NCBI GenBank assembly: GCA_001804285.1
Contig: MHFR01000042.1
Span: 78,725 to 142,724, forward strand
DNA from: Candidatus Danuiimicrobium aquiferis
GTDB lineage: Bacteria; Omnitrophota; Omnitrophia; Omnitrophales; Danuiimicrobiaceae
Reading direction: 5' to 3'
DNA length: 64,000 nt
How positions within the stretch are numbered: the stretch's first letter is position 1; every line of letters starts with the position of its first letter. Below are positions 16,839-63,400 of this stretch, piece by piece. A program made the position numbers and the translations under genes. Below the pieces are notes generated by a model, which did no database searches, was not told where the DNA came from, and worked only from the letters and a program-made list of their open reading frames with translations.

Positions 16839-16885
16839 CAAAAAACCGGTCAACCTGAGTTACATAGAAAGGTTGTTCATAACAT

Positions 16886-38678: not shown

Positions 38679-38733
38679 TAAAAAAAAGGACAGTACCCTT
38701 TTTGCATAGCAAACAGGGTACTGTCCTTTTTAA
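38679..38733. terminator. Bidirectional rho-independent terminator between the convergent stomatin gene and the 38761 gene
   Basis: AAAAAAAGGACAGTACCC ttttgcatagcaaac GGGTACTGTCCTTTTT: 13-bp GC-containing stem flanked by A and T tracts. Confidence 0.8.
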
Positions 38734-39321: not shown

Positions 39322-39349
39322 AGTAGGGGCAATTCATGAATTGCCCCTA
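39322..39349. repeat. REP palindrome GTAGGGGCAATTCATGAATTGCCCCTAC (canonical copy) downstream of the RAYT gene
   Basis: Perfect 28-bp palindrome with 5' GTAG. Confidence 0.9.
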
Positions 39350-39375
39350 CAAAACGGCAAATAAAATGTCAAAGG

Positions 39376-39903
39376 TTAATGAAGGTATTCTGGATCCGAT
39401 TCCCATTTGAGAGGATTTTCTTGAATATATTTTCGATATTCAAATAATTCGTTTTCGTTGCGGATGATGTGTTCGTAATAATTACGTTGCCAGACAGGGG
39501 TGCCGGGGGTATCCCGAAGACGGTTGATTTGTTTGGCGGTGTTCATTTTCAAATATCCGATAATTTTTGATAATAACATATTCCGTCGTTTTGGACGGGT
39601 GGTTTGTAGGGGCAATTCATGAATTGCCCCTACGGATGCGGTATTATCGGGTGAGATGTAAATGATTCCATGGATATGGTCAGGCATCATGATGAATTCG
39701 TCGGTTTTAATATTTTGAAAACGATGTTCCAATTCATTCCATATTTTTGGGACCATAACACCAAAACAGCTCGGGACAAATTCGCTGTTTTTCATATGTC
39801 CCAATAAATATTGACGATCTCGTGTGCATATTGTAACAAAGTAATAACCTGATGATGAGTAATCCCAGTATTTTAACCGCAGAGTTTTGCGATTATTCGT
39901 CAT
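39376..39903 (-). CDS. REP-associated tyrosine transposase (RAYT, IS200/IS605 Y1 HUH family); start at 39903, overlapping the upstream stop as ATGA
   Basis: YYFVTICTRDRQ (cf. RAYT YFFTVNT), HUH motif PDHIHGII, catalytic Tyr motif WQRNYYEHIIRNE. A REP palindrome is embedded in frame at 39606-39633. Confidence 0.8.
   Translation of the reverse strand: MTNNRKTLRLKYWDYSSSGYYFVTICTRDRQYLLGHMKNSEFVPSCFGVMVPKIWNELEHRFQNIKTDEFIMMPDHIHGIIYISPDNTASVGAIHELPLQTTRPKRRNMLLSKIIGYLKMNTAKQINRLRDTPGTPVWQRNYYEHIIRNENELFEYRKYIQENPLKWESDPEYLH
39606..39633. repeat. REP palindrome identical to 39322, inside the RAYT coding sequence in frame (encodes VGAIHELPL)
   Basis: Exact 28-bp match; the reading frame is maintained. 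Confidence 0.9.
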
Positions 39904-41609
39904 TGAACCTTGGGATTTTCTACAGGTGCTTCCCACAACTGATAAAATTCAGGCTGATCACTGTAAATTGTTTCAAGTGCTTTCGTCAAAAAACCATTCG
40001 TGTAAGCATCAATATTTGCGGTGAGCTCATCAATCCGGAGGAGTGCGTTCATTCGTTCCGGAAAAGATTCTCGCGGCTCGAGGATAAATTCCAGCTGGTT
40101 TCGCCGGCGTTCGTAATAAAGCCGCGTGATTTCGCCGAGGAGATCGTTCCGGAGTTCCACCATCATTTTCTGGCGGGAATCGATGGACGTTTGTGCGGAA
40201 TTAAATAGCAAATCACCGACGTCCCATCCGAGATCAAAATCCCAACTTTCGTCAGTGTCGGCCGGGCCGAAGATAAATTTGTCGGCATCGCTGGTTCCGC
40301 CGCGGTCGAGATCGACATTGTTTGATGTCGAAAAACTTTTTCCGATTGAAAATGAAGGAATAAGAGCGCGAAGGCGCGACGTCCACTGCCAGCGTTTGAT
40401 TTTCCAGTTGCTCACATCAGCGTACAGGATCACTTCCTTCTGGACAGCCCGGACTGGCGGCTCTTCGCGCAGCAAATCATTTAATAAATTCCAGTGGCCG
40501 GGCGAAAAAATAACGGGATTTTCAGGATAAAAAACCTTCGGATCAATGGTGATGAAAAAAATACCATCGTCGGTTGCTGCGTAAAGGATTTCAGTCTGGT
40601 TTTTCCGTGCTAACATTAATTGCCGGGCGGCTGTGGCCGGCAGGCCTTCGTATAATTCTTTCCAGCCCCGGGATTTTTCATCGTAAAAGAAAACGCCTTT
40701 TTCTGTGCCTGCAATAACGGTTTTTGCTTTTGCCGAATAAACAAGATCGAGGACGTTTGTATTCAGAAGGCCTGTTTGCGGAAGGCTCTCCCAGTGATTT
40801 CCTTCGTCATCGCTTGTGAAAACTCCGCGCGTTGTACCGATGAAAATCCGGGAAAACGGATACGGTAAAATGAGAATTTTCTGAATTCGGAACGGATTTC
40901 GTGTTAGCGCTTCGTTCGATTCGCCGGAGCCGTTATTTTCCGTCTCTTCCATCGTTTCAATTTCCGTCAAATCAGAAAGAACCGATTGCGTGTAATAAAT
41001 GCGGTCTATTTGACGGCGGGAAGAAATATACCGGTAAAGTCCTTTTTCACTTGCAATAAACATTTCTTCGTTTTCAAAATCTGTTTTTAAATCCCAAACG
41101 ACTTCGCGCGAAAATTCATTTGTTTCTGCCGCCCAAGTTTTTCCGTTATCGTTACTTTTGAAAATGCCGCCGTGCGTGGCGAGATAAAAAATTTCAGGTG
41201 TTTTCGGGTCACGGCTGATGTTAATGGTGTTTTGATCGTTTGGATTCACGCCGTTAAAAATTTTTGTCCATTTTCCGCCGTTGTCTTCCGATATATAAAC
41301 GCCGTCTGAAGTGAGCAGAAAAAACCGGTTTTCCTGAATGACCAAATGATTCATTTGAAGCTCGGAAGCAAAGGCTGTCAGAGTTTTCCAGTTTTTTCCG
41401 GCGTCATCCGAGCGGTATAAATTTCCGCGCCATCCGATAAAAAGGCAATCCGGGTTTTCGGGGTGAGAAATAACAAAGTCGGTTTTTCCGTGTGCCGGCG
41501 ATTGGGATAAAATTTCCCAGCCTTGCGCGAATGCAAATTTGGTGTATACTCCGCAGATTAGGAGAAAGAGAAGAAAGCTAAAACGTGTTTTTTTGCCCAC
41601 AAATGTCAT
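39900..41609 (-). CDS. Secreted BNR/Asp-box repeat beta-propeller protein (start reassigned to 41609)
   Basis: Four S-x-D-x-G-x-x-W Asp-box repeats (SDDAGKNW, SEDNGGKW, SNDNGKTW, SDDEGNHW); signal peptide after the reassigned start; the upstream extension lies in a repeat. Confidence 0.6.
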   Translation of the reverse strand: MTFVGKKTRFSFLLFLLICGVYTKFAFAQGWEILSQSPAHGKTDFVISHPENPDCLFIGWRGNLYRSDDAGKNWKTLTAFASELQMNHLVIQENRFFLLTSDGVYISEDNGGKWTKIFNGVNPNDQNTINISRDPKTPEIFYLATHGGIFKSNDNGKTWAAETNEFSREVVWDLKTDFENEEMFIASEKGLYRYISSRRQIDRIYYTQSVLSDLTEIETMEETENNGSGESNEALTRNPFRIQKILILPYPFSRIFIGTTRGVFTSDDEGNHWESLPQTGLLNTNVLDLVYSAKAKTVIAGTEKGVFFYDEKSRGWKELYEGLPATAARQLMLARKNQTEILYAATDDGIFFITIDPKVFYPENPVIFSPGHWNLLNDLLREEPPVRAVQKEVILYADVSNWKIKRWQWTSRLRALIPSFSIGKSFSTSNNVDLDRGGTSDADKFIFGPADTDESWDFDLGWDVGDLLFNSAQTSIDSRQKMMVELRNDLLGEITRLYYERRRNQLEFILEPRESFPERMNALLRIDELTANIDAYTNGFLTKALETIYSDQPEFYQLWEAPVENPKVQ

Positions 41610-43058: not shown

Positions 43059-43150
43059 TGTGTTGAGATATTGAATTCGTTGTTCCTCTTCGCTTTCTTG
43101 CGTGCGCCGATTTTAGCCCAACCGGCTAAACAAAATCGGTGTACTCAGCC

Positions 43151-43186
43151 TATACCAATAAGCTTCGAGCGGAAGCTTATTGGTAT
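43151..43186. terminator. Perfect hairpin downstream of ychF
   Basis: ATACCAATAAGCTTC gagc GGAAGCTTATTGGTAT (15-bp stem); no strong T tract, so a weaker terminator call. Confidence 0.45.
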
Positions 43187-43395
43187 AAAGGCGCTCCGAG
43201 AAACAACGAGTTCAATATTTTATATATTTTGTTAAGAGAAAATCTCTGGGAGTTGTTCGCCGCGAGTTTGGCGAGCCAAATTTTCAAATTATTTTGGCGA
43301 GACACTGTCCGAGCGCCGAGCAACTCCCAGAGATAAATCACTTTTGACTTATTATCAAACCTGCTACAATACGCCATTAACAAGGAGCAGAGCGT

Positions 43396-44037
43396 ATGTT
43401 TCGAACCATCATTGAAGATTATAAAGTCGTATTTAAACGTGATCCGGCCGCGCGTACGATTCTCGGCTGGCTTGAAGTCCTGCTGCTTTATTCCGGATTT
43501 CACGCGATTTTCTGGCACCGAATCAATCATTTTCTCCACAGCAAACTCCATATCCCATTTTTCCCGCGCTTGATCGCGCAATTAGTCCGCTGGTTTACCG
43601 GTATTGAAATTCATCCGGGCGCTGAGCTCGGTCCCGGCTTTTTCATTGATCACGGAATGGGCGTGGTGATCGGCGAGACGACGGTTACCGGAAAAAATGT
43701 GATTCTGTATCAAGGCGCCACACTCGGCGGAACGGGATCAGAACGCGGCAAACGTCATCCGACGCTCGGTGACAATGTGGTGGTCGGTGCTGGCGGGAAG
43801 GTGCTTGGGAATATTACCATCGGAAACAATGTAAAAATCGGTGCCGGATCAGTGGTGATTCATCCCGTACCGGATAACGCGACGGTGGTGGGCGTTCCCG
43901 GTGAAATTGTTCGGGTGAACGGAAAGAAAGTGAGCGACACCGGCATGCTTGATCACGGCGACCTTCCGGATCCGGTACTCGAATTGAAAGAGAAGCTGGA
44001 GAAGCTCGAGAAAGAAATCGAAAGATTAAGAAAATAA
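43396..44037 (+). CDS. cysE: Serine O-acetyltransferase with short C-terminal coiled-coil tail
   Basis: SAT N-terminal motif plus hexapeptide repeats; C-terminal [18 protein letters not shown]. Confidence 0.8.
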
Positions 44038-44160
44038 ACTGAAAATCCCAATGTCCAAATCCACAATGACCAAAAAAATCCCAAGAAAATCAAATATCCA
44101 ATTGGACTTTGGACATTGGGAGTTATTTGCGTCATTGTGTGCTTGGCCATTGGTCATTTA
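44038..44160. repeat. CAATGACC-family element between cysE and rnhA
   Basis: AATCCCAATGTCCAAATCCACAATGACCAAA ... GCGTCATTGTGTGCTTGGCCATTGGTCATTT. Confidence 0.75.
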
Positions 44161-44178
44161 ATTCACACGTTTAGCATT

Positions 44179-44595
44179 ATGCGTTTCAAACTCTACACAG
44201 ACGGCGGGGCACGGGGAAATCCGGGGCCGGCAGCGATTGGCATTTACCTTTGTCATCTCGATGGTGAGGTGGTGCTTGAGCACGGTGAAACGATCGGTGT
44301 TGCCACGAATAACGTTGCGGAATACCGCGCTTTAATTGAAGGCCTTAAACGCGCGAGAGATTTGGACGCGAAATCCCTCGAATGTTTTCTCGATAGCGAG
44401 CTTGTGGTTAAACAACTCCAGGGTGAATATCAGATCAAAAATTTTCAACTTCAAAAACTGTTTGATGAAGTGCGAAGGGCCGAAGTCAGTTTTGAATATG
44501 TTTCCTATACGCATTTACCGCGGGAAAATGAAAACATGCGCAGGGCGGACCAATTAGTTAATTACGCGCTCGACTACGAACAGGGACGGGCCTAG
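44179..44595 (+). CDS. rnhA: Ribonuclease HI (start at MRFKLYTDGG)
   Basis: YTDGGARGNPGPAA active-site motif; the track ORF 5'-extension lies in a repeat. Confidence 0.8.
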   Translation: MRFKLYTDGGARGNPGPAAIGIYLCHLDGEVVLEHGETIGVATNNVAEYRALIEGLKRARDLDAKSLECFLDSELVVKQLQGEYQIKNFQLQKLFDEVRRAEVSFEYVSYTHLPRENENMRRADQLVNYALDYEQGRA

Positions 44596-44632
44596 GCCCG
44601 TCCCCAAAATCGAACTAAATAGAGAGGTAAAC

Positions 44633-44986
44633 ATGACATTGTTTCTAACCGTACTTATTTGTCTTATTGCCGGTTTGGCGAGCTCACTTCTCGGAATCGG
44701 CGGCGGAGCGATTCTGGTGCCGCTATTTCATTATTTGCTTAAAATGGATATGCATCTTGCCATCGGTACATCCCTTGCGGTCATTATACCAACGACACTT
44801 GCCGGAACCTTTCAACACATCGTGGCAAAAAACGTGGATTGGCGCGTTTTTGCCATTGCGTCCGTCTGCGCTATTATCGGCGCGATCATCGGGGCTAATC
44901 TTTGTATGAAGATTGACGCTCAGATGTTGAAAAAGATTTTTGCGGTTTTTATCCTCCTGATAGCCATCCGGATGCTGATACAGTAG
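44633..44986 (+). CDS. TSUP (TauE/SafE, DUF81) half-size membrane transporter
   Basis: 4-TM protein with GIGGGAILVP motif. Confidence 0.55.
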   Translation: MTLFLTVLICLIAGLASSLLGIGGGAILVPLFHYLLKMDMHLAIGTSLAVIIPTTLAGTFQHIVAKNVDWRVFAIASVCAIIGAIIGANLCMKIDAQMLKKIFAVFILLIAIRMLIQ

Positions 44987-45061
44987 GGTTCTATTCCCCT
45001 TCAATCTCCTTATAAAAAGTATCTGTTTAGCGTTCTGAAGTGGCGAACACGCCAGGTTCGT

Positions 45062-45125
45062 GTCATGCCCGCATGCTTAAGGCGGGCATCCACAGTTTCT
45101 GGATTCCCGCTTTCGCGGGAATGAC
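45062..45125. repeat. Paired-hairpin element downstream of the TSUP gene
   Basis: GTCATGCCCGC..GCGGGCATCC and GATTCCCGC tttc GCGGGAATGAC. Confidence 0.8.
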
Positions 45126-45139
45126 AAAAAAACAGATGC

Positions 45140-45406
45140 TCTTTTACAGATAATCGCTTCAAAGCGCTAAACAAATACTATAAAAACGCCTAAAAATTGT
45201 ATCTTATTAAATACATTTATAATACATAAAGCACATTTCTAAACAAATGTAAGCTATTTATATATACGTATGTAATAAATATAGTATTCTTTGAAAATAC
45301 CTTTCTAAATTACTTGAAAAACTTAAACTCAGCGTGTATACTTCAAACTGATTCGAACATTCCATGGTATTCCCAAAAATCCGCAGTACTGGAATGTTAG
45401 GGGAAC
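45140..45406 (+). promoter_or_regulatory. AT-rich leader/promoter region of the giant ORF, ending in RBS AGGGGAAC before ATG 45407
   Basis: Local AT richness distinct from surrounding DNA; immediately follows a paired-hairpin element. Confidence 0.4.
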
Positions 45407-48400
45407 ATGAGGGGAAAATCCAGAATACTTAGATCGATAGCAGCGGTGACCGTATTCTTTTTTTTCTGGAATACCGCTACAGCGTACAGCTTGCCGGTTC
45501 TCGGACTTTTGCCGGCCAAGTTAGGCACCGTCCAATCCACACCTGAGCATATTCCGTCACAATCAACCGACAAAACAGTTCTGCTTTTATTAAATGCTCA
45601 TACTTCAAGTGACGCACAAAAAAACATCGCCGAAATGCTGGAGTTCTTTCAGGCTCAAGGCATTGACCTGATTGGCTTAGAAGGCGCGGATGATCGGATC
45701 GACGGTGAGATATTCCGCAGGTTCCCGCATAAAGAGTCGCTTGCGAAAGCCGCTTGGCAGATGGTAAAAGACGGAAAGCTGACCGGAGCGGAATACTTTT
45801 ACGTTACAGCGGAAAAAATACCGGCATTTTACGGGATCGAAGACAAAGCGCTTTATCACGAAAATAAAAATGCATTTGTCGCGACTACCCAATTGCGTGA
45901 AAAACTTGCCGTAACTTTAGAAAAGGTTTCAAACGCCGCCGCCGAACTCAAAAACAAAATTTACTCCAAAAAACTCAAGAATTTCGATTCCCTTGTCACA
46001 CGCCATAAAAATCAGGACACAAGCTTCCTCGATTACTTTTCACAATTAAACGAAGCCTCCGACGATGCGGATATCGCGATTCCGACTTATCCGAATGTTT
46101 ACGCCTTATCAAAAGCAGTTGAAAAGGAAAAAACCCTCAATCAGAAAAAAGTTGCCAAAGATATCGAAAAAATCAAGAAAACCCTCCCGAAAGACGCAAT
46201 CCGGGAAGATATTTTTTCAATGGCCGGTAAAAACGATCTTGAATCTCGGAATAAAGATGAAAATGAAGATGTTTTATATATATATAAGAAGCTCTACACG
46301 TATTTTTCGGGGTTGGTTAATCCAAACGTAGGGGCGGGGTCATCCCGCCCGTTTGAGAAGGGCGCGGAGACCGCGCCCCTACAATTGAATGATTTCAAAC
46401 ATTTTAAGCGTTACTACGAATGGCTTGAAGCCGTTACGGCAGTCAAGCAGGCATCTCTTTTCGAAGAATTAGATGCGCTTGTGGTGCAAATTTACAGCCG
46501 GATCGCAAAATCGGATAAAGAGAAAACGCTGCTTGAAATCAACCGTTCTTTTGAGACATTTCAACAGAAACTTGCAATTCAATTGACGCAAAAAGATTGG
46601 GCGAGGGTGAAGGCTATAAAGGTGCCTGGCACGTTTTTTGTGCCTGGCACCTTTTCCGAACTCGGCGACCGTGCTCCTCAAATTTCACCGGAAGAACTCT
46701 TATTGATCGAACAGGCGAATGCACAGGCCTCCCAATTTTATGAAGTTGCCGAAAAACGAAACGTAATTTTCACAGATAAAATTATCAACCAGATGGAGAC
46801 ATCACAGAAAAACGTTTCCGTTGTTGTGGTCGGCGGTTTCCACGAAGCCGGCCTCAGAGCAGCGCTCGAAGCAAAAGGCGTTCATACGGCCGTGATTACG
46901 CCGAAAATGAAAGATGCGATTTCTGACATTCCGTATATAGAACGAATGACGGGAAAGCCCACCCAGCTTGAAAAAATCATTACCGAAGCCATGAGCGCGC
47001 TCGAACGTGAAATCGTGATTTCCGGAAACGCACCGGACGAGATGCGGCGAAATGCTGCAGTGGAACTTGTAACGGCTTCCGTGCTTGAGCGGTTGTGGAA
47101 TACGGATCCGGCACGCCGGGAACAGGTTGCCGATGAATTGAGTCGATCGATTTCCAGAATAATTCCGGGCGTTCAACTTGGTTTGCAGAAACCGGTTATC
47201 CCGGATGATTGCGAAGGTTCGGAAAAGTGTTTGCAAATTCCCGTTGTAATCAACGGAAAACAAATCGGCTTGTCCTTAAAACAGAATGGCGCGTCGAAAA
47301 CGTTTAGCATAGAGCGGGCAAAAGCCGGGGCGCTTCATGAATCGCCCGTACAACAACCATCCGAAGGGGCAATTTATGAATTGCCCGTACCGGTGAATGA
47401 GAATCCAATATTTCCCGGCGCAAAGCGATCTTTGTTCGCTGGTCACCTTGGTGCTGCAGCGGCAGTTGTCATTTCCCGTTCGGAAGTGCGGACCGTTACA
47501 GTTACCAGAGAAGAAAATGTTACGACGATTACGTTTGATGACGGAACGACAGTTTCTGATAGCAATGCGCAAAAATTAGCGGAAAAACTCAAAGCGGTAC
47601 TTCCTGAAAATCTGAGGACAGGAGTTTTAGAGGGAACCGATAAAGCAGCACAGATTTATGTTGTCTCGGGGTCGCGTGGGCGGGATATATACATATGGAA
47701 TACGGATGAACTTCAAACTGCTTTAAATGAATTATTAACTTCCAAATCCGCAACGCCACAGTTTCCGGCAGCAGCATCTCCGGTTATTGAGGCTCGCTCA
47801 GAACACCGTGTTGCTAAAATATTGACTGTGGTGGGTGTTATGGCGGGAGCGATTGCTTCTTACATAATTCCTAATCAAGCGATTCATTTGATCCAGCAAT
47901 ATAATGCGGATATATTTAAATGGGGTTTGATCAGTGTGGCCGGAACTCTTGTTGGGGGTGCGGTCATAGGATTGCTTTGGCATGAAGAAAGAGCGTGGCG
48001 CCAGGCCGCCGCGAAAACGCGCAACATAACAGATCGTTCCAGTGCTGATCAAGAGAAAGCCCAACGCTCCGAAGTGCGGATGAACGCTGATTTTGATGAT
48101 TTGTTCGGTACAAATTTATTTTCGTCAAGGTTGTCATTGGTGTTTGGGGTAATCCTTGTTGTCGGTATCGGCATCGGTATTGCTGTGAATCGGCATGAAC
48201 GTGGGAATACTCCTTTTCCAACCACTATGCCGGCAGAAAGTGCGCCCTCAAGTAATATTCAACCAGCCACCTGGCCAGCGGCGCGCTCCGAAGTGCGGAC
48301 GCAAAGATCGCCGGAGGAACTTTTAAACTTGTATGGAAGATTTGCGCGTGAATTTGCACAAAGAGCCGCGCCGTATCCCATAGATGAAGTCGGAATTTTT

Positions 48401-51400
48401 CACGTCATTAATTGTTTGAGAAAAATCCCCCGCGATACGAGTGACCGGGAAGGAATGGCGGATCCAAGACTATCAAAACCAATCGCTTATGCTATCGTGA
48501 AGCAAGCCCAGCAAGATGATGCTGAATCGAAAGCGTTGGCCGACCGATTACATATTCCTAAGATCAACCCATTGTATCTCGCGGCATTTGAACAATACTG
48601 GAAATATTTAACTACGCGACAGCCTCCCGTCAGTGACATAAGCCAAACTCTCGGAGTCCCCGTGACCTCCTGGCGGTTTGTGAAAGCGCTTCCGAAAGAT
48701 TCCGGCGAACTCAAAATTGTTCTGGATTATTTTCTGCAAATGCTGCGGAAAACCAAAGCGCAATTAGACCGGTCCCATGAAAGCATGATGGGCGATTCAA
48801 CGATAGTGGATGACATTTTAGGCGGAAGCACAATTCCAAACGGCGAACAGGTCGAAGCGATCAGAATGAGTTATGGCGACGAAGCTGTCGAACCGACGTT
48901 GAGGGAACAAGTTAAAGAATTATTATCGAAAGTGCCCGCACCGCAAGCCCGGCCCAAAGACCTGCAAAAAATTTCATTTGAGAAAATTCGTAAAGATCCG
49001 ACAAATGTGGAGAACTGGGAAACGCTGATCGCGGAATTTAATAAAGCGTTTGTTTATTTGCAGGGTTCTATCAATAAGGAAGCCGACGAGATTCGGAAAG
49101 ATGTAAAAAAGCTACGTGCCGAACCCGGCATGCGGGCATGGCTCGTCAACGGTTTTAAAATCAAGAATTTAATTAGAAAAATTGACCAGGGATACAGAAC
49201 CATCCAGTTTTATTCGGATATTAGCGCGCAGCTAAGCCAGTTGAGAATTCTTGCCCAGGCGGTCCATGACGCCAAGGCGAGTCCGCAAAAATTGAGAGCT
49301 TCTCCCAAGACGGGAAGCGGTCGTTCGGAAGTGCGTGGGTCCTTGAGAGAACGGATGAAAGGTTTTTGGAATGAATTTTCACCGGCTCAACAGCATATTC
49401 TCCGCCGTCAAGCTGGGACCTTGCTATTTATTATCGGAGTTGTCGGAATTGCAGTGGGGTCTGCTTTATTTGAACGCAAATCATCGCCGCCGACGACAGC
49501 TCCTTCTCCTACAAGTCAAAGATCAGAAATACGGACAACGCCAAGCACAGAGGAATTACTTCGGATTTCCGAATATATGAGGTTTAAGGATTGGCAAATT
49601 ATTTACAAGGCCGGATCCGGCCATCCGGGCGGAACTCTTTCCGCGACAGAAATTCTGGCAACGCTTTATTCCGACAGGGAGTTGCTTCGTATCGACCCAG
49701 TGCGGGACAGAAATACAGACTATACAAAACGTTGGAAAAACCGTGACCGGCTTGTGCTGTCTAAAGCACACGTCGTTCCGATTCAATATGTGGCTTTGTA
49801 TCTTTCCGGACTTTTGACGCGCGAGGAGATTGAAGCTTTACGTCAAGATTCCCAAGGACTTGCTCAAGGGCACGCGACAATGACGACGTCCGGTATTGAT
49901 CTTTCGGGAGGCGTACTCGGTTACGGGGCTCCGGCAGCGATGGGAATGGCGGTAGCGGCAAAAATGGACGGCCGCGATTATCATACCTTCACGCTGATCG
50001 GCGACGGTGAAATGCAAAAAGGTCCGATGTTCGAAATGATGCAAATCGCTCCGCAGCTCGGCCTCGATAATTTTACGGCGATCGTGGATTACAACCAGTA
50101 TCAGCAGAATCGCGCCAGCACCGGTTACACGGCCTTTGATTATGACAAGATGTCGAGTGTGTGGGAACTCGCCGGATGGAATGTCATCAAAGTGGACGGA
50201 GAAGATTTCAAAGACAACGCCCGTTATATTGAAGAATTGCGGAAAGGTCTTCGCGATTCCAAGAAAATGAAAAACAGCAAACCGACGGTTGTGATGGTGA
50301 AGTCCATCAAAGGCCGCGGCATTTCGGTCGCAGAAAATTTATTCCGCGCCGGCAATACAAAATTTCATGGTAGCGCTCCGAATGCACAGCAATATGAAGA
50401 AGGCGTGCGGGAAATCGCACCCCGGCTCGGCGTGAGTGTTGAGGACAGAAATCTGGCAGATATTGAAAATGATTTAGAAACAATCGGCGACGAACTGCGG
50501 GGAAAATTCCATGACAAATGGCAGATTAGGCAAGGCGGCTTTTTTGGAATCGATCAGAGGAATGACACGTCAGCAGCCCTTGCTTACCGGGAACGGGCGG
50601 CAAAGGTTGGCCAGATTCAACCCAAAGCATACAAACCCGGAGAGGAAGTCGCGACGCGTGTCGCCGCCGGAGACAAACTTCTTTATGAGGCAAGCAGAGA
50701 TCCTTCCCTTGTGTTTGTGAGTCCTTCTGATTTACAGGATTCCGTCAATTTCAAACCGATTGCGAAAGTATTAGGCGAATTTGGTTCACCGGACAAAATA
50801 GGTGACTTTGGTCCCAAAAGTCCGCAAGGCAGATTAGTCACTATCGGAATTATGGAAGACGGCGGCGTGGCTTTGTCGGTTGGAATTTCGGCTGCAGGAT
50901 TAGGATTTAAACCTTTTGTCGGAACGTTTGATCGTTTCGTCGACATTATGCTGACCACCGTTGAAATGGCTGCGCTTAACAGAATTCCTGTTGGAATTGT
51001 CGGCACTCACGCGGGTTCCGAAACCGGGCCTGATGGCGGCGGAAATTTTTCCATTAAAACACCGGCGTTGATAGGCGCTATTGCAGATCACGGACAGGAT
51101 ATGGCGATGTTCGAGCCTGCGGATGCTCCGGGAACCGTGATGGCGGTTGATCAAATGATTACTACTTTAACATCCGGCATGCCGGCTTATTTAAGAGCCA
51201 GCCGTTCTCCGCGGCTCGTGAGAGATCGCGCAATGGCTGTTCGAGATGAAGGAGAAAATGGATTTATTGTTTGGAAATATGCCCTGAATCCCAAAATTAT
51301 TTTAGTCGCAAGCGGTGCGACAGTGACCAATACCATTAAAGCAACCGAGCTGTTGGAATCTCAAGGGATACCTGTCAGTGTTATCGAAATTACGTCGGTG

Positions 51401-54400
51401 ACGGGAATCGAAAAACCGTTTTCCGGCAATCGTCTTGCCCAAACGTGGCTTGCACCGCAAGTTCCGGTTTATACCATTCATGATGCATCAGCAAATGCTC
51501 TTCATGATCCCGTTCTTGGAGTTGCGCAGAGAACGAGAGCTTACGTTCCGGTTTATTCGCGCGGGATCACCGATGCGGGTTCCGCGTCTCCGGCTGCCAT
51601 GTTTACGGCCAATCGTTTTAATGCAGATCAAATTGCCGAAGATGCGGAGGTTATTGTAAAAGGATCAGTTCCTCCGGGTGTTTTCGTCCGGTCTGAAACC
51701 CGCAACATGACAAATAGTTCCAGTGAGGAGTTAACCGAAGCGCGCAACCGTGAAAATAATTCAGAGGGAATGTCAACGGAAAGCGCGCAAGAGTCCTCGT
51801 CTGATCAAAGTGCTAAGACAAGGGCCGAAGCCAGGGAGTTATTGTTACAAAAATTAGAAGGCCTCCTCGGACAATTAGAACAAATCAAGGACGAAGCAAA
51901 TGCCGATCGAATAAAAACATATCTCCACAGTGTGTCGGAGATGATCAAGATGGCGGGCTGGATGCCGGAAGTAGAGAAATTTATTAAAGAGCATTATGAG
52001 ACAACTTCCGGGGCTCAGGTGTTTGAGCCAACGGTGGATGAGCAAACAAACCAAGATTCTTTAGTGGCGCGACGAATCCGGGAGTTAAGGGAAATATTCT
52101 TCGCTAGTTTCAAAAATGCAGCTGAAGACAAAATCATGCAAGTGGCGGGCGGCTATCTGCCGATGCTCGAAGACTTCCAACGCAAACTTGCTTCCTTAGC
52201 CGAAATCGAAAGTTTTGTGAAAGAAAAGATACAACAACAGATACTGGCATTGGTTGAAAAAACGTTCAACGCTATTTTTGAAAATCCTGCTTTGATAGAT
52301 CCTGAAATTAGAGAGGCTTCCTATGTGTTTTCTGTGATCGGAGACGTTGGCGGGAAAGAAGCGGCGCTTAAAAACATTGCCGCTTGGCTTCGGGAAAACA
52401 AGTTGGAACTTCTTCGCACGCGCATTGAAGAAGGGTTGATACTATTAGGAAAGAATGACGCCAAGACCGACTTAAGTCATGCCTATGAGCTTTTGACGGG
52501 GCGTCCTGCGCCTTCGTATCAAGATGATCAAGTGGGATCCCTTGTCGCAAGCCCCATCCGCTCCGAAGCGCGCAACGAATTAAGTTCCGAGTTGGAAGTT
52601 CAAAGTTTGAAGTTGGGGAAAGAAGGTAAACCTGAAACTTTAAACTCAGAACTTGGAACTCAACTTAGGGCCGAAGCCCGCAACATAACAGATAGGTCCA
52701 GTGAGGAGTTAACCGAAGCGGGTGCCGGTACTTTGGCTGATCAAGAGAAAGCCAAACGTGCCGAAGTGCGCAACCTCGGAAATAGTTCAGAGGAAACATC
52801 AATAGAAAGCGCGCAAGTGTCCTTGTCTGATCAAAGCGCTAAGACAAGGGCCGAAGTGCGGGAAGTTGACTACGCCTATTTGGGGGCTTACGGTTTTGTC
52901 GGGGCCGCGATGCTTGGCGCAGCATTTTATGGGAATTATGCCGCTAACCGCAAAGTAAAAACACCAGTCCAGGAAGCCGTATCGCCGACAGCGCACAGCT
53001 TGATCCTTCCGGTTGTCGATACAACAATCTATGTGACGGAACAGGAATTTCAAGAAATCGTTCAAAAAGCGTTTCCGGCGATTGGGACAGCGCCGCTTGT
53101 GTTTGTGACTCCCGAACAGAATACTGCGTTTCTTAAAACATTTTTACCGCACAGAGAACAACATCTATTCAAAAATCTGGTTTTGGATGAACCGCAGCGA
53201 ACGCTCGGGGGGTCTATTAGTTCGGATCGGGTGCTGACGGGTGTAGGGCAGCCAATCAAAGTATTCGGATTTGTCGGAAATGATGATGCGGGTATATTTG
53301 CGCTTGAGAAACTTAAAGGATCCGGCATCGCGACAGGGATCCAGGTGCTGGATGGCGGAATGACATCTCAAACGCTTGTGATTGAAGTGGTGAAGCCCAA
53401 GACGGACGGCAGTGGCGGTTATGATTCGGCAGGAAGATACTTTTTGCATGTTAAAGGCGTGAATGAAGAACTTGGGAAATATTTAGAAAACGGACGTTTG
53501 AAAAGATGGTTTCTTCAGGAGTTCGGAGAAAACGAAAAGCCGATTCTCCATATCGGTTACGAGGCGCTTTCGTCGGAATATTATTTCCGGAATTTATACC
53601 GGCTGATTCGGGAACTTCGTGCGGAAGTGCCCGGCTTGCGTGTTGCGTTGGATACGGTTGCTGATTTCGGGAATTTATGGGGCAAATTTTCAGATGATGG
53701 GAAAAAATTACTCGCAGAACTGGATGTGCTGACCGTTAGTCTCGACGAAGCGGTAGCCATTTACGAAAAGCTGACAGAAAAAAAACTTACGGACATGAAA
53801 GAAAAAGATATGACGCTCGCTCAGGCGGAAGCGGTGTCGAGAGTCATGGTGCCTTGGTTTCTTGCGACAATGGAAAAAGGCACGGTTTTAATCAAGGCGG
53901 GCAATAAGGGAAGTTTTTATGGATCGAATCATTGGCCGAATGGCGGCTGGCGGAACCGAAAGATTCCGTTTGCATGGATGCCGATTGTTCCTAATGAATT
54001 GATACAAGCTGAATATGCGGCAGAAGTGGATGGCGAAAAAGTTGCCAATACGACCGGTGCGGGCGATGCGGCTTCTGCCGGTTTTATTCAGGCGCTGCAT
54101 GACGGCTATGATGTCCATCAGGCGGCGGCACTGGCTTCGGTCTACGGAGGTTTAAGTTACGGCCAACTCGGAGGAGGCGTCATCGGGCACCCTGCCGAAA
54201 CAGTGGGGAAACTTTATCAGGATTTTGTTGCGGCAAACCGCGGCGATTACCGGCCGGCAGCATTTAGACAATCGTCACTCGCGGAGATGACGGACAAAGA
54301 AATTGAGACCCTGATCATCCGGAGAATTGTTGCTAATAACTTTAAGACAGTAAAACCATGGAGTTTTGGGGCTAAAATTGTAAATGTGGAACCGGTCGAT

Positions 54401-57400
54401 ATTAGTGAAGCGATTGAAAAAGTAGGCGCTGATTTGATTAAACAAGTCCGCGAAATTATTTTGAAATATGGGGAGTTTCGAATTGGGATAGAACCGTCTC
54501 ATGACCTTAAAGAGGATGATACGTCTGAGCCCCAAAGCATGTGGGTTTATCCGCCGTCTTTTGCGACTCAGGGAAGAATGTTTTTCGAATGGGTATATGA
54601 TGCTGTTGCGCAGTATGGAGAAGAACTTTCCGGAAACGGCCATCGTATTTCTTCTTTACAGATGGAACAAATCAGAAAGTTTTTGGCGGCATATCCGGAT
54701 GACAACATTCTCGGCATTGTCGCGATCGACCGTTTTCATTCTCAATATAAAAGAGTAAACAAAATAAACGACGGACAACTCCATTATTTTATTGTCAGAC
54801 GGAATTCTTTTGAGGACGATAATTTTCTCGTTTTGCATCCTGCCGATCAGGACTTTGCGGTAGCGTTTGCCCGTGCAATGCCTTTCGAATTTCACCGGAT
54901 GCCCTTAGGGGCTCTGGTGTTAAATACTCCTGAAGAATTGGGCCAGATCAGCGGTACGGATGTTGTGCTCCAGATGCAGTTTATCCCCGTCTCGAAAATG
55001 GCCGGAGTGACTGCTTACAATTTTGATCCGAATCATGCCTTGATCCAGAAATGGTCTGTGCTTGCAGGAACGCCTGTGTTAGAAAATTGGATAAGAAATC
55101 AGCTTGAGATTCGGATTGCAGAACTTTCCCGCTCGGAAGTGCGAAATACGTTTACTCCGGCGGAACTCGGCGAAATCACGCAGCCGCTGATCGACATTCT
55201 CCATCTTGTCCGCGAATTAGATGCCACATCGAACGGATCTTCTCAATTGAGAGCATTCATTCCTCAAGTCCGGCGGGAAATTGAACGCCTCAACATCGAA
55301 GGATTGAATGCCGTTTTGGTCGGAAAAATTATGCCGGTTGCACAGGGGCTTAGCCATGCGGAGCGGGCTCACCACAGATTTTGGACAGAAACAATGCCTG
55401 CGCCGGTCAGTCGGATGGCTCAAGAATTAGCAACCCGGCAGCAATCGTTAACAGGTGATATTGATCAAAAACTGACAAGAGCAAAGGCTGCTGCGTTGAA
55501 GCCCGTAATTACTCATTTAGTAAAAGCGTATGATTTGGTTGCCGATGCACGCGCAATGCAAAGAAAAGTTTTGCAGGATTCAGAAATTGACGGGTTGTTT
55601 AAATCAACCATTGAGAAAATCGAAGCACTTCAAATTGAAGAAGCGATTGGGTTGATTGATCAAATTGTTGAAACGATAAATTCTCTTCTTGAACTTGATC
55701 CGAAGCAATTGCCTTCAATGGTTTCAAATTTAGAACAAACACGGACCGAACTAAACATTGTTCGCCGTCTATTAGAACCGCGTGCCAATGCCGGCGCGGA
55801 TGTAGCTGATGCGAGGGCCGAAGCCCGCGACCTTGGAAGTTCTTTTGTCATTCCCGCGTCCGCCAAACAACGCGGTCGGATCCGCCAAAGCGTTAGTGGC
55901 GGAAAAGCGGGAATCCAGCTGGATCCCCACTTGCGTGGGGATGACACCAATTTGAGAGCCGAAGTGCGGACTGATCAGGTATCGGCGGAAGATTTGGATT
56001 GGGAACGTGCGCGGCTTGAGCAAGAAGAGGAAGATTTAAGAATTAAATGGGAAGCAACGGAATCGGCATATCTTAGATTAAAACAGCTTAGATCAAAGCA
56101 GCAAGGCGGAATTAGTCATAAGGCACTTACGGATGCTCAACAAAGAGCCGCTGAGGCTAACGGGCAATATCTAAAAGCGCAGCAAGCTTTGTTAGCTTTT
56201 CAGAGACGGATTGCTTCGCGAAACGTTTCTTCGAAACCTTCCGAAACTTTAGTGCAACTTCCGGCGTGGATGTACTCTGCTGTTGGGATTGGTAAACCCA
56301 CGTTCCCGACCGTTGCGGCTCAAGTTGCGGCATTAACCGGTATCGGCGGAGCTTCGATTCCAGTACCGCGTCAGGTGCCAACGTCGTTGCTGCAAATTAT
56401 TAGGTCGGAAGCGCGCAACGATCGAAGTTCTTCTGTCATTCCCGCAAAAGCGGGAATCCAGCTGGATCCCCACTTGCGTGGGGATGACACCAATTTGAGA
56501 TCCGAAGTACGGGGCACAGAGTCCCCAGTGCAAGCGGCGCTCAAAAATATTCTGAATGCGCATTTTTATTTAGGAATCATTCCGGGCCTGATTGCATTTT
56601 CGGTTTTTCCATTATGGAGCGCATCGTTTAGTGCGGAGCGCAGACTTCTTCAGACGAAATTAAGCCGGCAGGGAATTTCTTATTGGCAAGTGGATTGGTC
56701 CGAAATTCCGGCTGACGTGTATGATCAAATCAAAGCCATCCGGGCGTCCGGCGGCGATTTTGATGTTCAGTTCAGTCCGGCCAGGGTTGATGATGAATAC
56801 TCAGACTATCATTATCCGCAAACGCTTCGCATTGTGCCGGTTTCCCTAGAAAAGGGGACAGGCAATCGTTCGCTTTTGAGTCATATGCCTGTCCCCTTTT
56901 CTGCGTTAAACGCTGATCAAGCGCGAGCCGAAGTAAGAAGTGAATTCGGAGAAGTCTTAAATCCAATTTTGGCGGATGTTTATAAGATTTTAGAAAGAGC
57001 CGGACGGAAGTTAAGTTTAAGTCCTCTCGAAATCGAAGAAATCAAAACGCCGGTTAACACCTTCTTGAAATGGGTTGAGTCAGAACACGCGTTATCGCAC
57101 GGTCAATATGAACAAGCGCTGGATATCCGCGTCCGGCATAGTAATCCCATCGGGAAAGACGGAAAACCCGAGCGCGCCCAGGGCGGAATTCGCATTTTAC
57201 TGCCGGAAAATCTCGGAAAAGGGTTCAATGACGAGAAATCCAAATTCTACCAAACGCTCAACAGAATGATTGCTGACGGAAAAATCCAGTTAAATGATAG
57301 TGACCACGAAGTTCAAGCTGCATTAAATCGATTCCTGGAGCAGTGGCTGACCGAAGAAACGACAGCGCTTGCCATTGACATGAGTCTGAAAAATAAAATT

Positions 57401-60400
57401 ATGGGGCTTCCGCACGGCGGCGGGAAAGGGATTTCCTTTTTAGGAAAATGGGAAAAAGTTAATGGTGCCTGGAAATTAGTGCCGATTGTGAAGGCCCAGA
57501 TTCAAGACGGCAAACGTGTGTTTCGAACATCGGATGTGGCGATTTTGATGAGGGATATCGGAAGAACATTTGCCGAAAACAATGTGATTCATGAATTGCT
57601 TGACGGCGGCGCGCCCGATCTAAATCCATTCGGCCCGTCGATTACCACGGAGCTATTAATTTCATGGATGATGGATGAAACTATCGCCGTTCTGATGCGG
57701 AATGAAAATGATGACATTTGGAAACAAAATCCCGGGTTGCTTGAGGAATTAAAGGATGCGGATGATAATGTCATTACCAACCCCGCATTTTTAAAGGTTT
57801 GTATGGCGTATACACAGCGGCATCCCGAAAAGATCCTTCCGTTTCTATCGCGGTACACCGGTAAACCGGTCGGATTAGGCGGGTTGCAGTATCGTAAAAA
57901 AGCAACAGGCGAAGGCGTCGTGGTGGCGGCAGAACGCATGGTCACGAAACTTCTTCCGGAGCGGGCGAAATTAGAAAAACCATTATCCGGATTAACGATT
58001 GGTGTTCAGGGACTTGGGAATGTGGGCACTTGGGTGGCAAAAGAAGCTGATCAGCGGGGTGCTTTAGTGACTGTATTAAGCGATGAGGGCGGGGCTATTC
58101 AATCCCCGCAATTTACGGGTGAGAAGTTGACGACGATTGGGACGTACCGCGATCTCACAAAAACAAGAAGCCTGTTGGGAGTTACAAAGCCAACGCTCGA
58201 TGGCCGGCCGAATCCATATTATATTGAAGGTGTTGAAGTCTTAGCGAGAGGAACGGAAGAAGGAAATATAGCGCTTTTTAAATCGAATACTCAGATTAAA
58301 GTAACGGCGGCAGTACAGGGAGCTATTGATGAAAGCAATGTTGATTTAATCGGAGAAGGAACATTATTCATTGATGATGGTGCTAACGGAGGAACGACGA
58401 GCGAAGCAGGCCGTTTGTTATATCAACGGGCTCCAAAAGTTCACGCACTTTCCGCAATCTTAGTCAGCGGCGGTGGCGTCGGACAATCTTCCCGTGAAGT
58501 GGTGGCGAATCTGACGAATCGCTATACTTCGGAAGGGGAAGACAGGGCATGGGTGTCCGAAAGAATCAACGCTGCTGTGGATGCCACTTGGACGGTTAGC
58601 CGGGCGAATGAGGTTGATATGGGGCTTGCGGCGGCGATGCTTGGAATCAAGCGTTTACGCGGGATTTCATCTTTCCGTGAAGTTCAACCCAATGTTTTGA
58701 AGAATGAAAAGCCTTCCACGATTGATGAGTCGCTTGCGATTGATGAAATCCGGTTGGCGGCTGAACGCCTTCGTCAATATGGAATTGAACAGCTAAATTT
58801 ATTGGCGGCGGCAAAGTTGTCTGAAAATGCCGGTGTCCCGGTTGAAGTTCTCGATGAAACCCTTCATTTGAGTAACTCCTTCAAAATTTTAGGATCTCTT
58901 AATTTTATTTTACGTGAACTGGAAAAGGCAAAACGGCAGGGTGTTACGATTACCACGATCGGGACGCAAACAACATTTAATCACGGATATGCGCTTGCGA
59001 TTGCTTACAATATTCTTGTTAATAAGAATGTCATTGATCCGAAACAGACAGAGCTTGTGATTTATGTCGGGAAAGAGATGCCGCCCGAAAATGTCAAACG
59101 GCTTGAAACGCTTCACGCGCGTGTTGTGCAGTTCGAGAATTACGAAAAAGCCAGATATGAAATGGACCGTACAAAGGAACAACTCCGGGATCAAATGATC
59201 CGGGTTGAGCATTTTAACGGGGTTTGGGAAGGATACGCGACTATTTTCCTCCATCTGTTCGATCAAACTAAAGCAAAAGTCGTAAGCGGCGAGTGGGAAA
59301 ACAAAACAATCGGAGTGACGGTTCCGGTCGGCACGGGCGGATTAATTGCCGGTGCGCAAGTGCTCAAGAAATTGGTTCAGGATGAAAAGCTTCCCGTGAA
59401 CATTAAAATCATCGCGGTTCAAACACCCGAAATCGACAGTTTATATCAATCGCTTCTACAAGGAAGAACCGTGCAAAGGAAGTTTCCCCCGATGGTTTAT
59501 GCCAGAGGAATTGGCGTAGAGGAACCGGAAATATCTGTTGGACTGGCGGAATCGTTTATCGATTACGTGGTGTTGGCGGATGAAAGAACACAGGGAATTC
59601 CGGCGACGAAATTACTTTATGACGATATGTCCATGCACGGTCTGGGAGCGCAGAAATATGAAGTCACCTCAGGTTTGACGGCATCTGTGGCGGTTGCCCA
59701 GAAAGAATTTTTTGCGCGCGAAGGAATTGATCTCTTTATTCCGGTGTTAAGCGGAGCAAATGAAATCGAGTCTGTTTGGGAAGAAGTTTTGAAGAGTGAT
59801 GGACAAATTGCCCGATCCGAAGCGCGCGGAATTTCTGGTGCAGGGCAGAATTCGCTGACAAATCTTACTTTTGCTGAATTTTCGGAATATGTCAAAACCG
59901 GAGAAATCGGCCGGGGAGATCGAATTCAAGTCAGAACCAAAGGCGGCCGGATTGACGAAGTTATTTTCGAGCAACTAGAACCTGAAGGAGGGATTTTTCA
60001 ACCGACCGAAATTCAGGGTATTAAAAAAGTTCGGGAGGCAGGACAGCGTTCCCAGGATGTCGAGGTTGCTTATCAGGCTAAAGATGTTCAAACGGTCAGT
60101 GTCATTGCCCGCAGCAACGGTTCACTGCCTGAATTGTTGATACAGCGTGTTGCCTTACAAGATCGCATGGAACAGATTGTGGATGAAATGGTTGTGCCGA
60201 GCGAGGAATTGCTGAGTTTCAGCGGACGAATGATAGACGAAATGAATGCCGGCCTTCGCGGCGATCCCAAGTCATTAAAAATGATTGCGAGCATGGTGCC
60301 GGAAGCAACGGGGAACGAAAAAGGAATTTATGGATCTACCGATATGGGTGGGACAAACCTCAGGAATTTATTTATTAAAATTGAAAATGGCGAAGCGTCT

Positions 60401-63400
60401 CTTGTGGCAATGACAAAGGCCACGATTCCGGTCAATTTAATGGGCAAATCGTCCAGCGCAAAGAAGTTATTTAAATTTGTTGCCGGCAAACGTAACGAAT
60501 TTCTAAAATCCAGAGTATTAAACAAAGCGCTTAAAGATCAAAAAATTAGTATTCCAGAAAAAGATTTGATCGGATTTGCGTATTCTTATCCGGCCGATAT
60601 GGGCGCGATTGATATCGCTTATTCAAGTGGAGCGACTAAATATATGTTACTGACGGATATTGAGGGAAAAGATGTCGGCGCGCTTTACAACGAGGAGCTT
60701 CAAGCCTTGGGATTAACGGCAAGTCGAGTGGGCGCCATTATCAATGATACGGTGGCAACCGGCGCGCTTGCGCAGCTTGCCAACAAAAATGTTCTCGGCG
60801 GTGGCATATTAGGAACGGGCGAAAACTGGGCTTATCTCGAAGATATTGAAAATATTCTTACTTTAACTGAGGCGCAAAGGCAGTGGCTTCGCGAACATGG
60901 CATCAAGAGGATGTGGATCAACATAGAAGCCGGCGGTTTTGATCGAGTGCGACAGACCGAATATGATAAGCAAATGGATCAAATTTCGCCGAAACCCGGT
61001 TCGCAGTTGGCGGAAAAAATGATTTCCGGCATGTATTTGGGCGAACTGGTTCGCGTGATATTGACAGATTTGGCAGGCAAAAAGCTCCTTTTTAACAGTC
61101 AAACCGGGAATCTGTTAGAGACTTCTTTCGGAAAAGATGAATACGCCTATGTTTCAATTTTCGGAATCAGGATCCCTCTTTTTAAGAAACTTGCGGAGCT
61201 TCTGAAAACTATCGGATTAGGCAGATGGATCCGGAAGAATGTTTTCACCTCTTCCGATATGGATCCTATTGCGGCGGATACAACACCCAATCTTAGCATG
61301 ACACGAAATGTTCTCCGGAAATTTGGCATTATGCAAACGACTTATGAGGAACGGAAGGCCGTCAAACGAATTGTGGATCAAGTTGCTTTGCGATCGGCTT
61401 CTCTTGCGGCTGCTCAGATCATGGCAATTATTTTAAAAGTAGATCCGAATCTGGAGCGGTTCCATGGGATGGCTATTGACGGAAGTTTGTTTGAGAAATA
61501 TCCGCGCTACGAAAAGATGATGATGGGTGCGCTCCGTAAAATTGCGGAGAGGAAGTTCGGGGACTCAAGAAAGGTTGATCAAATCACACTGACGCTCAAG
61601 AAAGACGGAACAGGCAAAGGCGGCGGAGCGGTGACTGCGATTGCCGATCAGACAAAAATTGCCGAATTGCCTCGGTTCCCTCGCGTACAAACGGGAGAAA
61701 ATTTCCGGAACCTATCGATTCAGAAAGTGGTTGAGTTGGTGAATGCGCTTGATCTGGGCTATCAGCAGGCTCAAGGGCTCAGGGCGGTGATGGTCCAATC
61801 GTCCGGCCAGAATGTCCAGGTTTTCTGGCGGGAAGGAAGACAACCCATCGGCGGTTTTAGCCGTGCGCTGAACGAAATTAGCCAGATGTTACGCGGCCTT
61901 GGAAGTCCCATATTTGATTTATATGAAGTGAGCCACAAAGGCGCGCTGGGACTTGTCATTGTTCTTTCCGGGCAAACTCCTGCACGCGGAAAAATCGGTG
62001 ACGTGTTTAACATTGCCAGGGCCGAAGCGCGAGTGGCGCAAACGGCGGAGGAATTTGGCAGACTTGCCCAGGCGGCACAAGAAAAAGGATGGATTTCAGA
62101 GGCGGCGTTAGCGAATATCATATCGTGGGGCAGTTCCGAATATAATTTGCGGCTCGGACAATTTTTGACCAAAATGTTTTCCGGTTTCGATGAAGATATC
62201 ACAGTCCACGAAGCCATTACGAAACAGTTTAATGCTGCCGGCCAAAATGAAAAAGTCTGGAAAGAAATCGGCGATGCTTGGTATGAAATCCTGAAAGTCG
62301 GAACAGCCGGTATGCGCGGCAAGATCGGATTCGGCACGAACCGGATCAATCTTTTTACGATCGGAAAGCTTGAGCTTGCTCACGCTTTGGCGGTTGCGGA
62401 TGATCAATATAATGACATTGTGAAGAAGGTGGATTCTCAATTTGATCCGATGACGGAAAGAAAAGCGGTTGTAATCGGCGGTGATTCGCGGCATGGTTCA
62501 TGGCTTCCGGATGCGAAGCAGCCGAACGGCGGAACGCCGGGCTGGCAAATTAAATTAGAAGCTTTGTTGAATGTTGTCCACGGTGTTCGCGCGTATGTTT
62601 ATCAAATTCCAACTTCAACGCCACAAATTGCATGGTCGACGCACAGCCTTGAAGTGGCCGAAGGTTACCGGATTGTGTCCGGCTCGATGAATACGGCAAG
62701 TCATAATCCCGCCACGGACAACGGAAACAAACCCTACAAACCGGACGGCTCCCAGTCGACCGGCGAGTTTGCTGATCTGCTGAAGGACCTGGTCAAGAAG
62801 GCGACACCGGACTATCTTGCGACGCTTCAATATGCCAACCGCAATATTTTAGAAAACATTGATGAGCTGTTCGAACAGGCCGTGAAGAATGGCGAGATTG
62901 TGCTGATCGGCGGCGACAACGATCCGCTTAACGTGGATGATCAATTTGTCGAGGTGGAGCTTGACGAAGCGATTCATACGATCGGAGATTTGTTTGATCA
63001 ATCGAAAATTGATTTAGAAAACGCAAAAATTGTTATTTCACCGCTTTGGGGTGTTTCAAAGCATATCTTGGCTAAAATTTTAAAACGACGGGGCCTTCGC
63101 GACGATCAGATCATTTGGGTGGAGGATGTGCCGAATCCTGATTTTCCGGGTGTGAAAGAAGGAAAGCCGAATCCTGAATCGCCGAAAGCACGGGAAGTGG
63201 CACTGCAGAAAGCGATTGATACGGGCGCGGGTCTTGTGTTGTGGACGGATCCGGATTCCGATCGTCCTGCGGTTGCGGTATTGAAAGATCCCAAAGCCAA
63301 GCCGGCCAATTTTGACGATTTTATTTCTTTGAACGGCAATATGCAGCTGGCTGTGTTGACGGATTATTTGATTCGTGAAATTAAGGAATTGGGAGATTTG

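Follow-up and report, generated by a model that had tools for sequence, protein, structure and literature searches.

Translated palindromes in a giant Omnitrophota gene

The 64,000-nt stretch analysed here, referred to as the window (positions 78,725 to 142,724 of contig MHFR01000042.1 of Candidatus Danuiimicrobium aquiferis, phylum Omnitrophota), carries the 5′ part of a giant multi-enzyme gene whose open reading frame (ORF) reads through short palindromes of the repetitive extragenic palindromic (REP) type. The ORF is preceded by a stop codon at 45398, has its ATG at 45407 and contains no stop up to base 64000 (>6,197 codons in the window); on a longer public contig the gene was called at 11,856 aa. 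Pfam analysis showed six enzyme modules in one giant polypeptide, namely transketolase (approximately aa 1388–2030), PfkB kinase, Glu/Leu/Phe/Val dehydrogenase, a pyridoxal phosphate-dependent enzyme, hexokinase, and phosphoglucomutase, spaced by linkers bearing the motif R[SA]E[VA]R. The nearest relatives were Omnitrophota metagenome-assembled genomes. Look-up of a 715-aa fragment with 100% identity (P0001) gave no record, and neither Rfam at gathering thresholds nor ARAGORN gave a match across the window.

Seven palindromic segments from at least four families were counted within the giant ORF, in line with the proposal of the first-pass annotation, made from the sequence alone, that the gene had absorbed five or more. 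Three of the segments are the subject of this analysis: an element at 46328–46382, positioned correctly in that annotation, and a pair whose limits were corrected from 47327–47391 to 47324–47390. All three were read in frame 0 from the ATG as the peptides originally quoted, and realignment upheld their relation to REPs (Table 1).

Table 1. Genes, palindromic elements and motifs discussed in the text. TM, transmembrane; REPIN, REP doublet forming a hairpin; MITE, short for miniature inverted-repeat transposable element.
Feature	Sequence	Position	Strand	Remarks
Giant ORF, 5′ part	window	45407..64000	+	signal/TM N-terminus and uncharacterised module, then enzyme modules
Inverted doublet, REPIN-like, of a G+C-rich GTAG-headed REP family	window	46328..46382	+	translated VGAGSSRPFEKGAETAPL, giant-protein aa 308–325
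REP copy, 6 mismatches	window	47324–47351	+	giant ORF; reads AGALHESPV; decayed, 5-bp stem left
REP copy, 3 mismatches	window	47363–47390	+	giant ORF; reads EGAIYELPV; GAAG for GTAG, GTAC for CTAC; 8-bp stem
RAYT (REP-associated tyrosine transposase, Y1_Tnp)	window	39376..39936	-	HUH motif PDHIHGII, Tyr motif WQRNYYEHIIRN
REP, exact	window	39606–39633		within RAYT ORF, between HUH and Tyr motifs; reads VGAIHELPL
REP, exact	window	39323–39350		intergenic, 25 nt past RAYT stop codon
REP, 1 mismatch	window	27201–27228		intergenic, between two minus-strand genes; overlaps predicted ATG of ORF 26055–27215
REP variant	window	27706–27733		intergenic; same GTAGGGGCA arms, inner stem CGGCGCGCCG; would read VGARRAVPL
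REP	window	14054–14102		intergenic; same arms, 21-nt hairpin nested in loop
RAYT-internal 28-nt REP	L017; L018; L019; L020; L021	10259–10286; 10283–10310; 10292–10319; 10292–10319; 10286–10313
Further palindromic elements in giant ORF	window	46620–46655, 55850–55945, 56434–56489, 56848–56902		translated
Intergenic relatives of these further elements	window	16772–16839, 34667–34718, 38683–38731
Carriers of palindrome-derived peptides in LTQKEWE loop	L001, L003, L008, L010, L011, L012			e.g. SVILSPEGTKD...RFFAPEGAQNDN; VIPAKAGIQ...FGDD; SLRGNDRRGVPLWAP...GPAPT
R[SA]E[VAIT]R, example sites	window	47477, 48065, 51689, 55130, 56924, 59813, 62018
MITE-like palindromic element (~110 nt), two copies	window	25280–25395, 44040–44155		terminal inverted repeats of the type CCAATGACCAAG...CAATGACGCAA; columns 72% identical on average

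The 28-nt REP family and its copies in the giant ORF

GTAG-tagged REPs were defined, and tied to RAYTs, by Di Nocera, De Gregorio and Rocco (2013; BMC Genomics 14:522, PMC3733652). The window consensus, GTAGGGGCAATTCATGAATTGCCCCTAC, was perfectly palindromic over its 28 nt and carried GTAG on both strands. Eight REP copies were found in the 64-kb window: four intergenic, one in the RAYT gene and three in the giant ORF. All five copies outside the giant ORF retained GTAG, with GTAA on one side of the copy at 27201, and peptides of the VGARHAVPL type, akin to the reading of the variant at 27706, were found in other RAYTs. As 60 first-order Markov shuffles of the window yielded no match to the 28-nt REP at ≤7 mismatches, both 28-nt copies in the giant ORF are genuine relatives of the family, and chance resemblance was ruled out.

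The terminal tags were gone from both members of the pair, which ended in GCCG and GTAC (47324–47351) and in GAAG and GTAC (47363–47390), and the stem of the former was reduced further than that of the latter; one mismatch pair in 47324–47351 was compensatory (A9>G with T20>C). DNA folding gave −11.9 kcal/mol (z −6.4) for the canonical 28-nt REP. The copy at 47363–47390 still folded well (z −5.5) and that at 47324–47351 no better than shuffles (z −0.8). GTAG is needed in E. coli for binding and cleavage by TnpA-REP (PMC3333891); by analogy, the two copies at 47.3 kb that lack the tag are expected to be immobile. Tandem duplication was rejected as the source of the pair, since the 11-nt flanks were unrelated; a CCCGTAC change is common to both copies. 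The REPs were not assigned to MITEs either: they are plain hairpins of 28–55 nt, and flanking direct repeats were found at none of the eight copies.

On the minus strand, the REP at 27201–27228 presents CATGAA in its loop, and the predicted ATG of ORF 26055–27215 falls there; the true start of this ORF probably lies further downstream.

An inverted doublet of a second REP family

The element at 46328–46382 had originally been credited with the same CATGAA loop. This loop was absent, and on sequence grounds we assign the element, as an inverted doublet, to a second family of GTAG-headed REPs, distinct from the 28-nt family. The ends were perfect GTAGGGGCG / CGCCCCTAC, with GTAG on both arms. 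Two REPs of 23 nt, the right one inverted, flanked a 9-nt spacer; one corresponded to GTAG-GGGCGGG-GTCAT-CCCGCCC, the other to the reverse complement of GTAG-GGGCGCGG-TCT-CCGCGCCC. Every exact GTAGGGGC/GCCCCTAC in the window fell in such an inverted pair, and one doublet of the 46328 family was present. In the minimum-energy fold the arms paired into a single long hairpin (−24.1 kcal/mol, z −6.1).

The arms were 21/24 and 22/23 identical to those of a doublet inside a RAYT gene (positions 331–921) on an unrelated farmland-soil contig (L030). That doublet had the same architecture with a 20-nt spacer and was read as VGAGFPRPQFSSNLTGAETAPLQ, compared with VGAGSSRPFEKGAETAPL(Q) in the window. Relatives of the 46328 doublet sit in another RAYT subfamily, which is absent from the window.

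Palindromes translated within RAYT genes

The window RAYT gene, which had escaped the first-pass annotation of these elements along with the doublet's separate family and the translation of both palindromes in the same frame in RAYTs, lies 5.5 kb upstream of the giant gene. Its product passed the Pfam cut-off for PF01797 (29.1 bits vs. 23) and had REP_Tyr_transpos as its best NCBIfam match, at 63 bits, under the curated cut-off of 80; many of its 1,650 homologues were labelled RayT by their sources. In a sequence search of the PDB, TnpA-REP of E. coli (4ER8) was matched only marginally (E = 0.29). Compared with this marginal match, the window RAYT has approximately 27 more residues between HUH and Tyr motifs, and the palindrome sits there.

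Among 120 listed homologues of the 1,650 (41–59% identity, except for one 99%-identical copy), all 120 had VGAIHELPL or a degenerate form of it between HUH and the next conserved helix, often as several tandem copies. Named homologues came from KSB1, Brocadiales, Planctomycetota, Chloroflexota, Calditrichota, Geotalea, Thermoflavifilum, and Omnitrophota. Because this search picks its candidates by shared words, an index-free repeat scan with HMMER was run against 1.84 billion representatives. In the best 150 matches, which were inspected at 38–57% identity, the HUH–Tyr interval held peptides of the GTAG-palindrome type: VGAIHELPL-like, VGA[RTQ]HA.PL, VGAG..PAPT, and VGAG.RP...GAETAPL.

Six RAYT genes contained the 28-nt palindrome at 0–1 mismatch, namely those of the window, a second Omnitrophota, Thermoflavifilum thermophilum, a KSB1-type contig, and two others. 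Although these genes belong to different phyla and are only approximately 50% identical as proteins, the nine codons of the REP were identical, with a third-position identity of 1.00, vs. 0.40 and 0.50 in the HUH and MLLPKIIGYFK blocks, respectively. This difference indicated that the palindrome is maintained as nucleic acid within the RAYT coding sequence. In Thermoflavifilum, a neighbouring RAYT paralogue had a different palindrome, GTAAGGGCGGGTTCTGAACCCGCCCCAAC, at the same position, read VRAGSEPAPT.

We tentatively suggest, at somewhat less than even odds, that in a large multi-phylum clade of RAYTs the gene has its cognate REP built in as a translated module, which always lies between HUH strand and Tyr helix and is kept to the nucleotide while the rest of the gene drifts, with different palindromes in different subfamilies; REPs of this kind would be translation-ready, perhaps as a 3n unit of REP plus AA. 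If this is true, such REPs would be unusually able to colonise the linkers of long ORFs such as the Omnitrophota giant genes, and the RAYT-internal copy could act as a master copy or as a self-recognition or autoregulatory site. The translation of these palindromes in RAYTs and their constancy at synonymous sites across phyla point to an unstudied relation of a domesticated transposase to the hairpin that it recognises. A word search of part of the REP/RAYT literature, which amounts to absence of evidence, returned no mention of a REP inside a RAYT ORF, and the string GAIHELPL had no match in a literature search of similarly partial coverage. A protein search with four concatenated VGAIHELPL units, aimed at carriers other than RAYTs, gave one match at E ≤0.001 and was uninformative.

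RAYT genes were embedded in host operons by 4-nt start/stop overlaps (window 39900–39936; L017 10001–10004 and 10540–10543), which fits domestication rather than an autonomous insertion sequence. The upstream neighbour of the window RAYT is a BNR/sortilin-repeat gene; the RAYT of L017 sits between the genes for ornithine carbamoyltransferase and argininosuccinate synthase. In T. thermophilum (L018 9448–11153), a type I restriction-modification operon carries, between its hsdM and hsdS genes, a tandem of two intact RAYT paralogues with different internal palindromes and a third, degraded copy.

Absence of the elements from orthologous giant genes

Comparison with orthologous giant genes had been proposed as a check at first pass. 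Of 16 orthologous N-termini fetched (L001–L016), 15 were aligned with the window at 37–51% identity, and L004 (23%) was left out. The REP peptides were found in no orthologue covering either site, and the 28-nt REP at ≤6 mismatches was absent from L001–L016. At the first site (46328), the element was missing from the ten cleanly aligned orthologues, which read YFSxLI-[EQ]EKKxDPKx-LKxFSxY: where the window has 22 residues, 18 of them REP-encoded, the orthologues have approximately nine, and protein homology resumes on both sides, inside a conserved module. The insert that L002 has at this position is unrelated. The second site (47324–47390) lies in an unconserved linker, approximately 30 residues before a hydrophobic stretch and RSEVR.

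The orthologues carried palindrome-derived peptides of other kinds at other permissive positions. The loop after the conserved LTQKEWE (approximately window aa 400–417) was a hot spot, occupied by a different palindrome-derived peptide in most of the orthologous lineages covering it. Judged from these alignments, such loops appear to be tolerant sites subject to lineage-specific colonisation. In L012 and L013, this loop held a different GTAG-headed doublet, read in another frame (RRGVPLWAP...GPAPT).

Reading frame and origin of the insertions

Translation in all frames showed that frame 2 of every element begins with TAG, and that TGA occurs in frame 3 of the 28-nt family as well as, on the coding strand, in that of the 46328 doublet. 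The sole open frame starts GTA GGG GC., on both strands in the case of the perfect palindrome, and it is the frame used both by the giant-ORF elements and by the palindromes inside RAYT genes. The first-pass annotation had left the choice between strong selection on the frame and systematic in-frame insertion. Since insertion in either of the other frames would truncate the 11,856-aa protein and be lost, survivorship is sufficient and a special insertion mechanism is not needed. The L012 doublet, read in its different frame because that frame is stop-free in this variant, also argues against a fixed in-frame mechanism.

We estimate a probability of about 80% that the three segments are copies of two resident GTAG-headed REP families that entered loosely constrained loops and linkers in the N-terminal module of the giant gene and persist in the only stop-free frame. 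The window RAYT would be the mobilising enzyme of the 28-nt family, presumed as such because this family adjoins the RAYT gene and sits inside it. Routine translation of the palindromes in the same frame inside RAYT genes suggests that they already lent themselves to translation as a short loop peptide. Selection would have purged insertions in the TAG and TGA frames, and the open-frame copies would have survived. The copies at 47.3 kb, after loss of both tags and, in one of them, of most of the stem, may now be immobilised relics evolving as linker codons.

An alternative origin of the open frame would be systematic, frame-neutral insertion of a unit in which two bases are added to the REP (30 nt in all, or 57 nt in the case of the doublet), with the downstream frame kept by construction. 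All eight elements were indeed 1 mod 3 in length, five of the eight had AA after or TT before them (P ~0.01, post hoc), and CTACAA was the commonest junction inside RAYT genes; a mobile unit of REP plus AA, a multiple of three, could be considered a weak lead. The sample is small, however, and the pattern was spotted post hoc. The dinucleotide was missing in three of the eight copies, including 47363, and CAA in RAYT genes may simply encode Gln. As two of the three entry frames would still be closed by stops, selection would be needed anyway, and we consider this origin very unlikely. Much the same low probability applies to capture at gene fusion, by which intergenic REPs would have become coding as stops were lost and genes fused. 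Such a course would suit the usual location of REPs between co-directional genes (PMC3733652) and the position of the 47.3-kb pair and several other palindromic elements in inter-module linkers. Most orthologues with enough sequence nevertheless have fused ORFs of >1,000 to >3,000 aa without these REPs, which indicated that module fusion predates the insertions, and the homology on both sides of 46328–46382 left no junction within the conserved module.

Somewhat less remote, yet still improbable, is exaptation, in which the hairpins or their peptides now serve the giant gene by making transcription or translation pause at module boundaries, by helping to process or stabilise the mRNA, or as binding sites for the RAYT. 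The strong hairpin potential retained by 46328–46382 and 47363–47390, the clustering of giant-ORF palindromic elements in linkers by R[SA]E[VA]R, and the effects of REPs on mRNA stability and translation (background cited in PMC3733652) would be consistent with such a role. Elements with a function of this kind would have to be reconciled with their retention in no orthologue, the lost stem of the 47324 copy, the loss from both tandem copies of the GTAG required by TnpA-REP in E. coli, and the lack of a T-run after any of the three elements.

Several observations weigh against insertion of mobile REPs followed by selection on the frame. A search for strain polymorphism with the pair of genes immediately upstream of the giant one led to six loci in five distinct assemblies; the five assemblies tested were all 100% identical over 43001–50000 and gave no empty-site allele. 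With no such allele of high identity, and with the nearest orthologues at 37–51%, insertion boundaries and timing cannot be fixed. The 22 vs. approximately nine residues at the first site do not correspond to a clean gain of 55 nt. AlphaFold2 modelling of the N-terminal 800 aa from a 3-sequence alignment placed both sites in predicted coil at a mean pLDDT (predicted local distance difference test) of 42.9, too poor to confirm surface loops. RAYT-driven mobility of the 28-nt family is presumed, and the frame statistics comprise three copies in the giant gene and one in the RAYT, from 64–72 kb of genome.

Comparison with known systems

In-frame, intragenic GTAG-tagged REPs have already been described; the host gene is new. 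According to PMC3733652, REPs occur within genes in several species, mostly in Opitutus terrae, which like Omnitrophota belongs to the PVC (Planctomycetes–Verrucomicrobia–Chlamydiae) superphylum; more than half of the insertions consist of dimers or groups encoding 20–30 residues, tolerated copies lie in flexible loops or linkers, and disruptive ones are purged. The same paper describes short palindromes with terminal GTAG that are RAYT-associated, mostly intergenic and in a minority of cases placed in genes as single units or dimers, as in the window. The window elements differ in their host, an Omnitrophota giant multi-enzyme ORF, and in the 28-nt unit, a perfect palindrome with GTAG on both strands. 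In addition, the REPs in the searched passages of that paper flank RAYTs or overlap their 5′ or 3′ ends, whereas here a copy lies between the catalytic motifs.

The inverted arrangement at 46328–46382, with two REPs and a short spacer forming one hairpin, resembles that of the REPIN/RAYT system (Nunvar 2010; Bertels and Rainey 2011; Messing 2012; Ton-Hoang 2012), as does the presence among host genes of just one RAYT gene, which bears HUH and Tyr motifs and is adjoined by a REP. In the canonical arrangement REPs stand on both sides of the RAYT, whereas in the window one is inside the ORF and one downstream.

The classical case of palindromes inserted in frame at tolerant positions of ORFs that stay functional is that of the Rickettsia palindromic elements (RPEs; Ogata et al., 2000, cited in PMC3733652), of which that source places RPE-4 and RPE-6 with CGTC-tagged rather than GTAG-tagged repeats. 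The likeness to the window elements is one of function only, through in-frame palindromic insertion. RPE-1 elements measure approximately 100–150 bp and are much longer than the window REPs.

Giant multi-enzyme proteins are a feature of Omnitrophota (West-Roberts et al., 2023, bioRxiv 10.1101/2023.11.21.568195; bioRxiv 10.64898/2026.06.07.730766). The host gene in the window fits this class, described as membrane-anchored giant proteins that tile many metabolic Pfam domains, including hexokinase and phosphoglucomutase. The word stem "palindrom" was absent from both papers. With the present locus, Omnitrophota giant genes join the hosts of in-frame REPs, and the survival of the reading frame acquires a simple, checkable reason. 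The positions of the REPs would also mark dispensable linker in the giant protein, which may help to parse its modules.

Further repeats and motifs in the window

At least three further translated palindrome families were present in the giant ORF: KVPGTFFVPGTF; VIPAKAGIQLDPHLRGDD (twice, one with a nested insert); and EKGTGN...MPVPFS. Most of these further elements sit in linkers beside R[SA]E[VA]R motifs. The slightly wider pattern R[SA]E[VAIT]R occurred at 19 sites in the giant protein (window 47477–62032), vs. 0.1 expected from residue shuffles; its copies bracket the enzyme modules and the motif is also present in the orthologues. Codons differed between copies, which indicated conservation of the motif as protein sequence. 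R[SA]E[VA]R is a candidate processing or cleavage site, or sorting signal. West-Roberts et al. (2023) stated that the cleavage points of giant proteins are unknown, and the motif at module boundaries offers a concrete candidate for these sites.

Lastly, one of the two MITE-like copies, at 44040–44155, overlaps the predicted TTG start of an RNase H gene (44116–44595).

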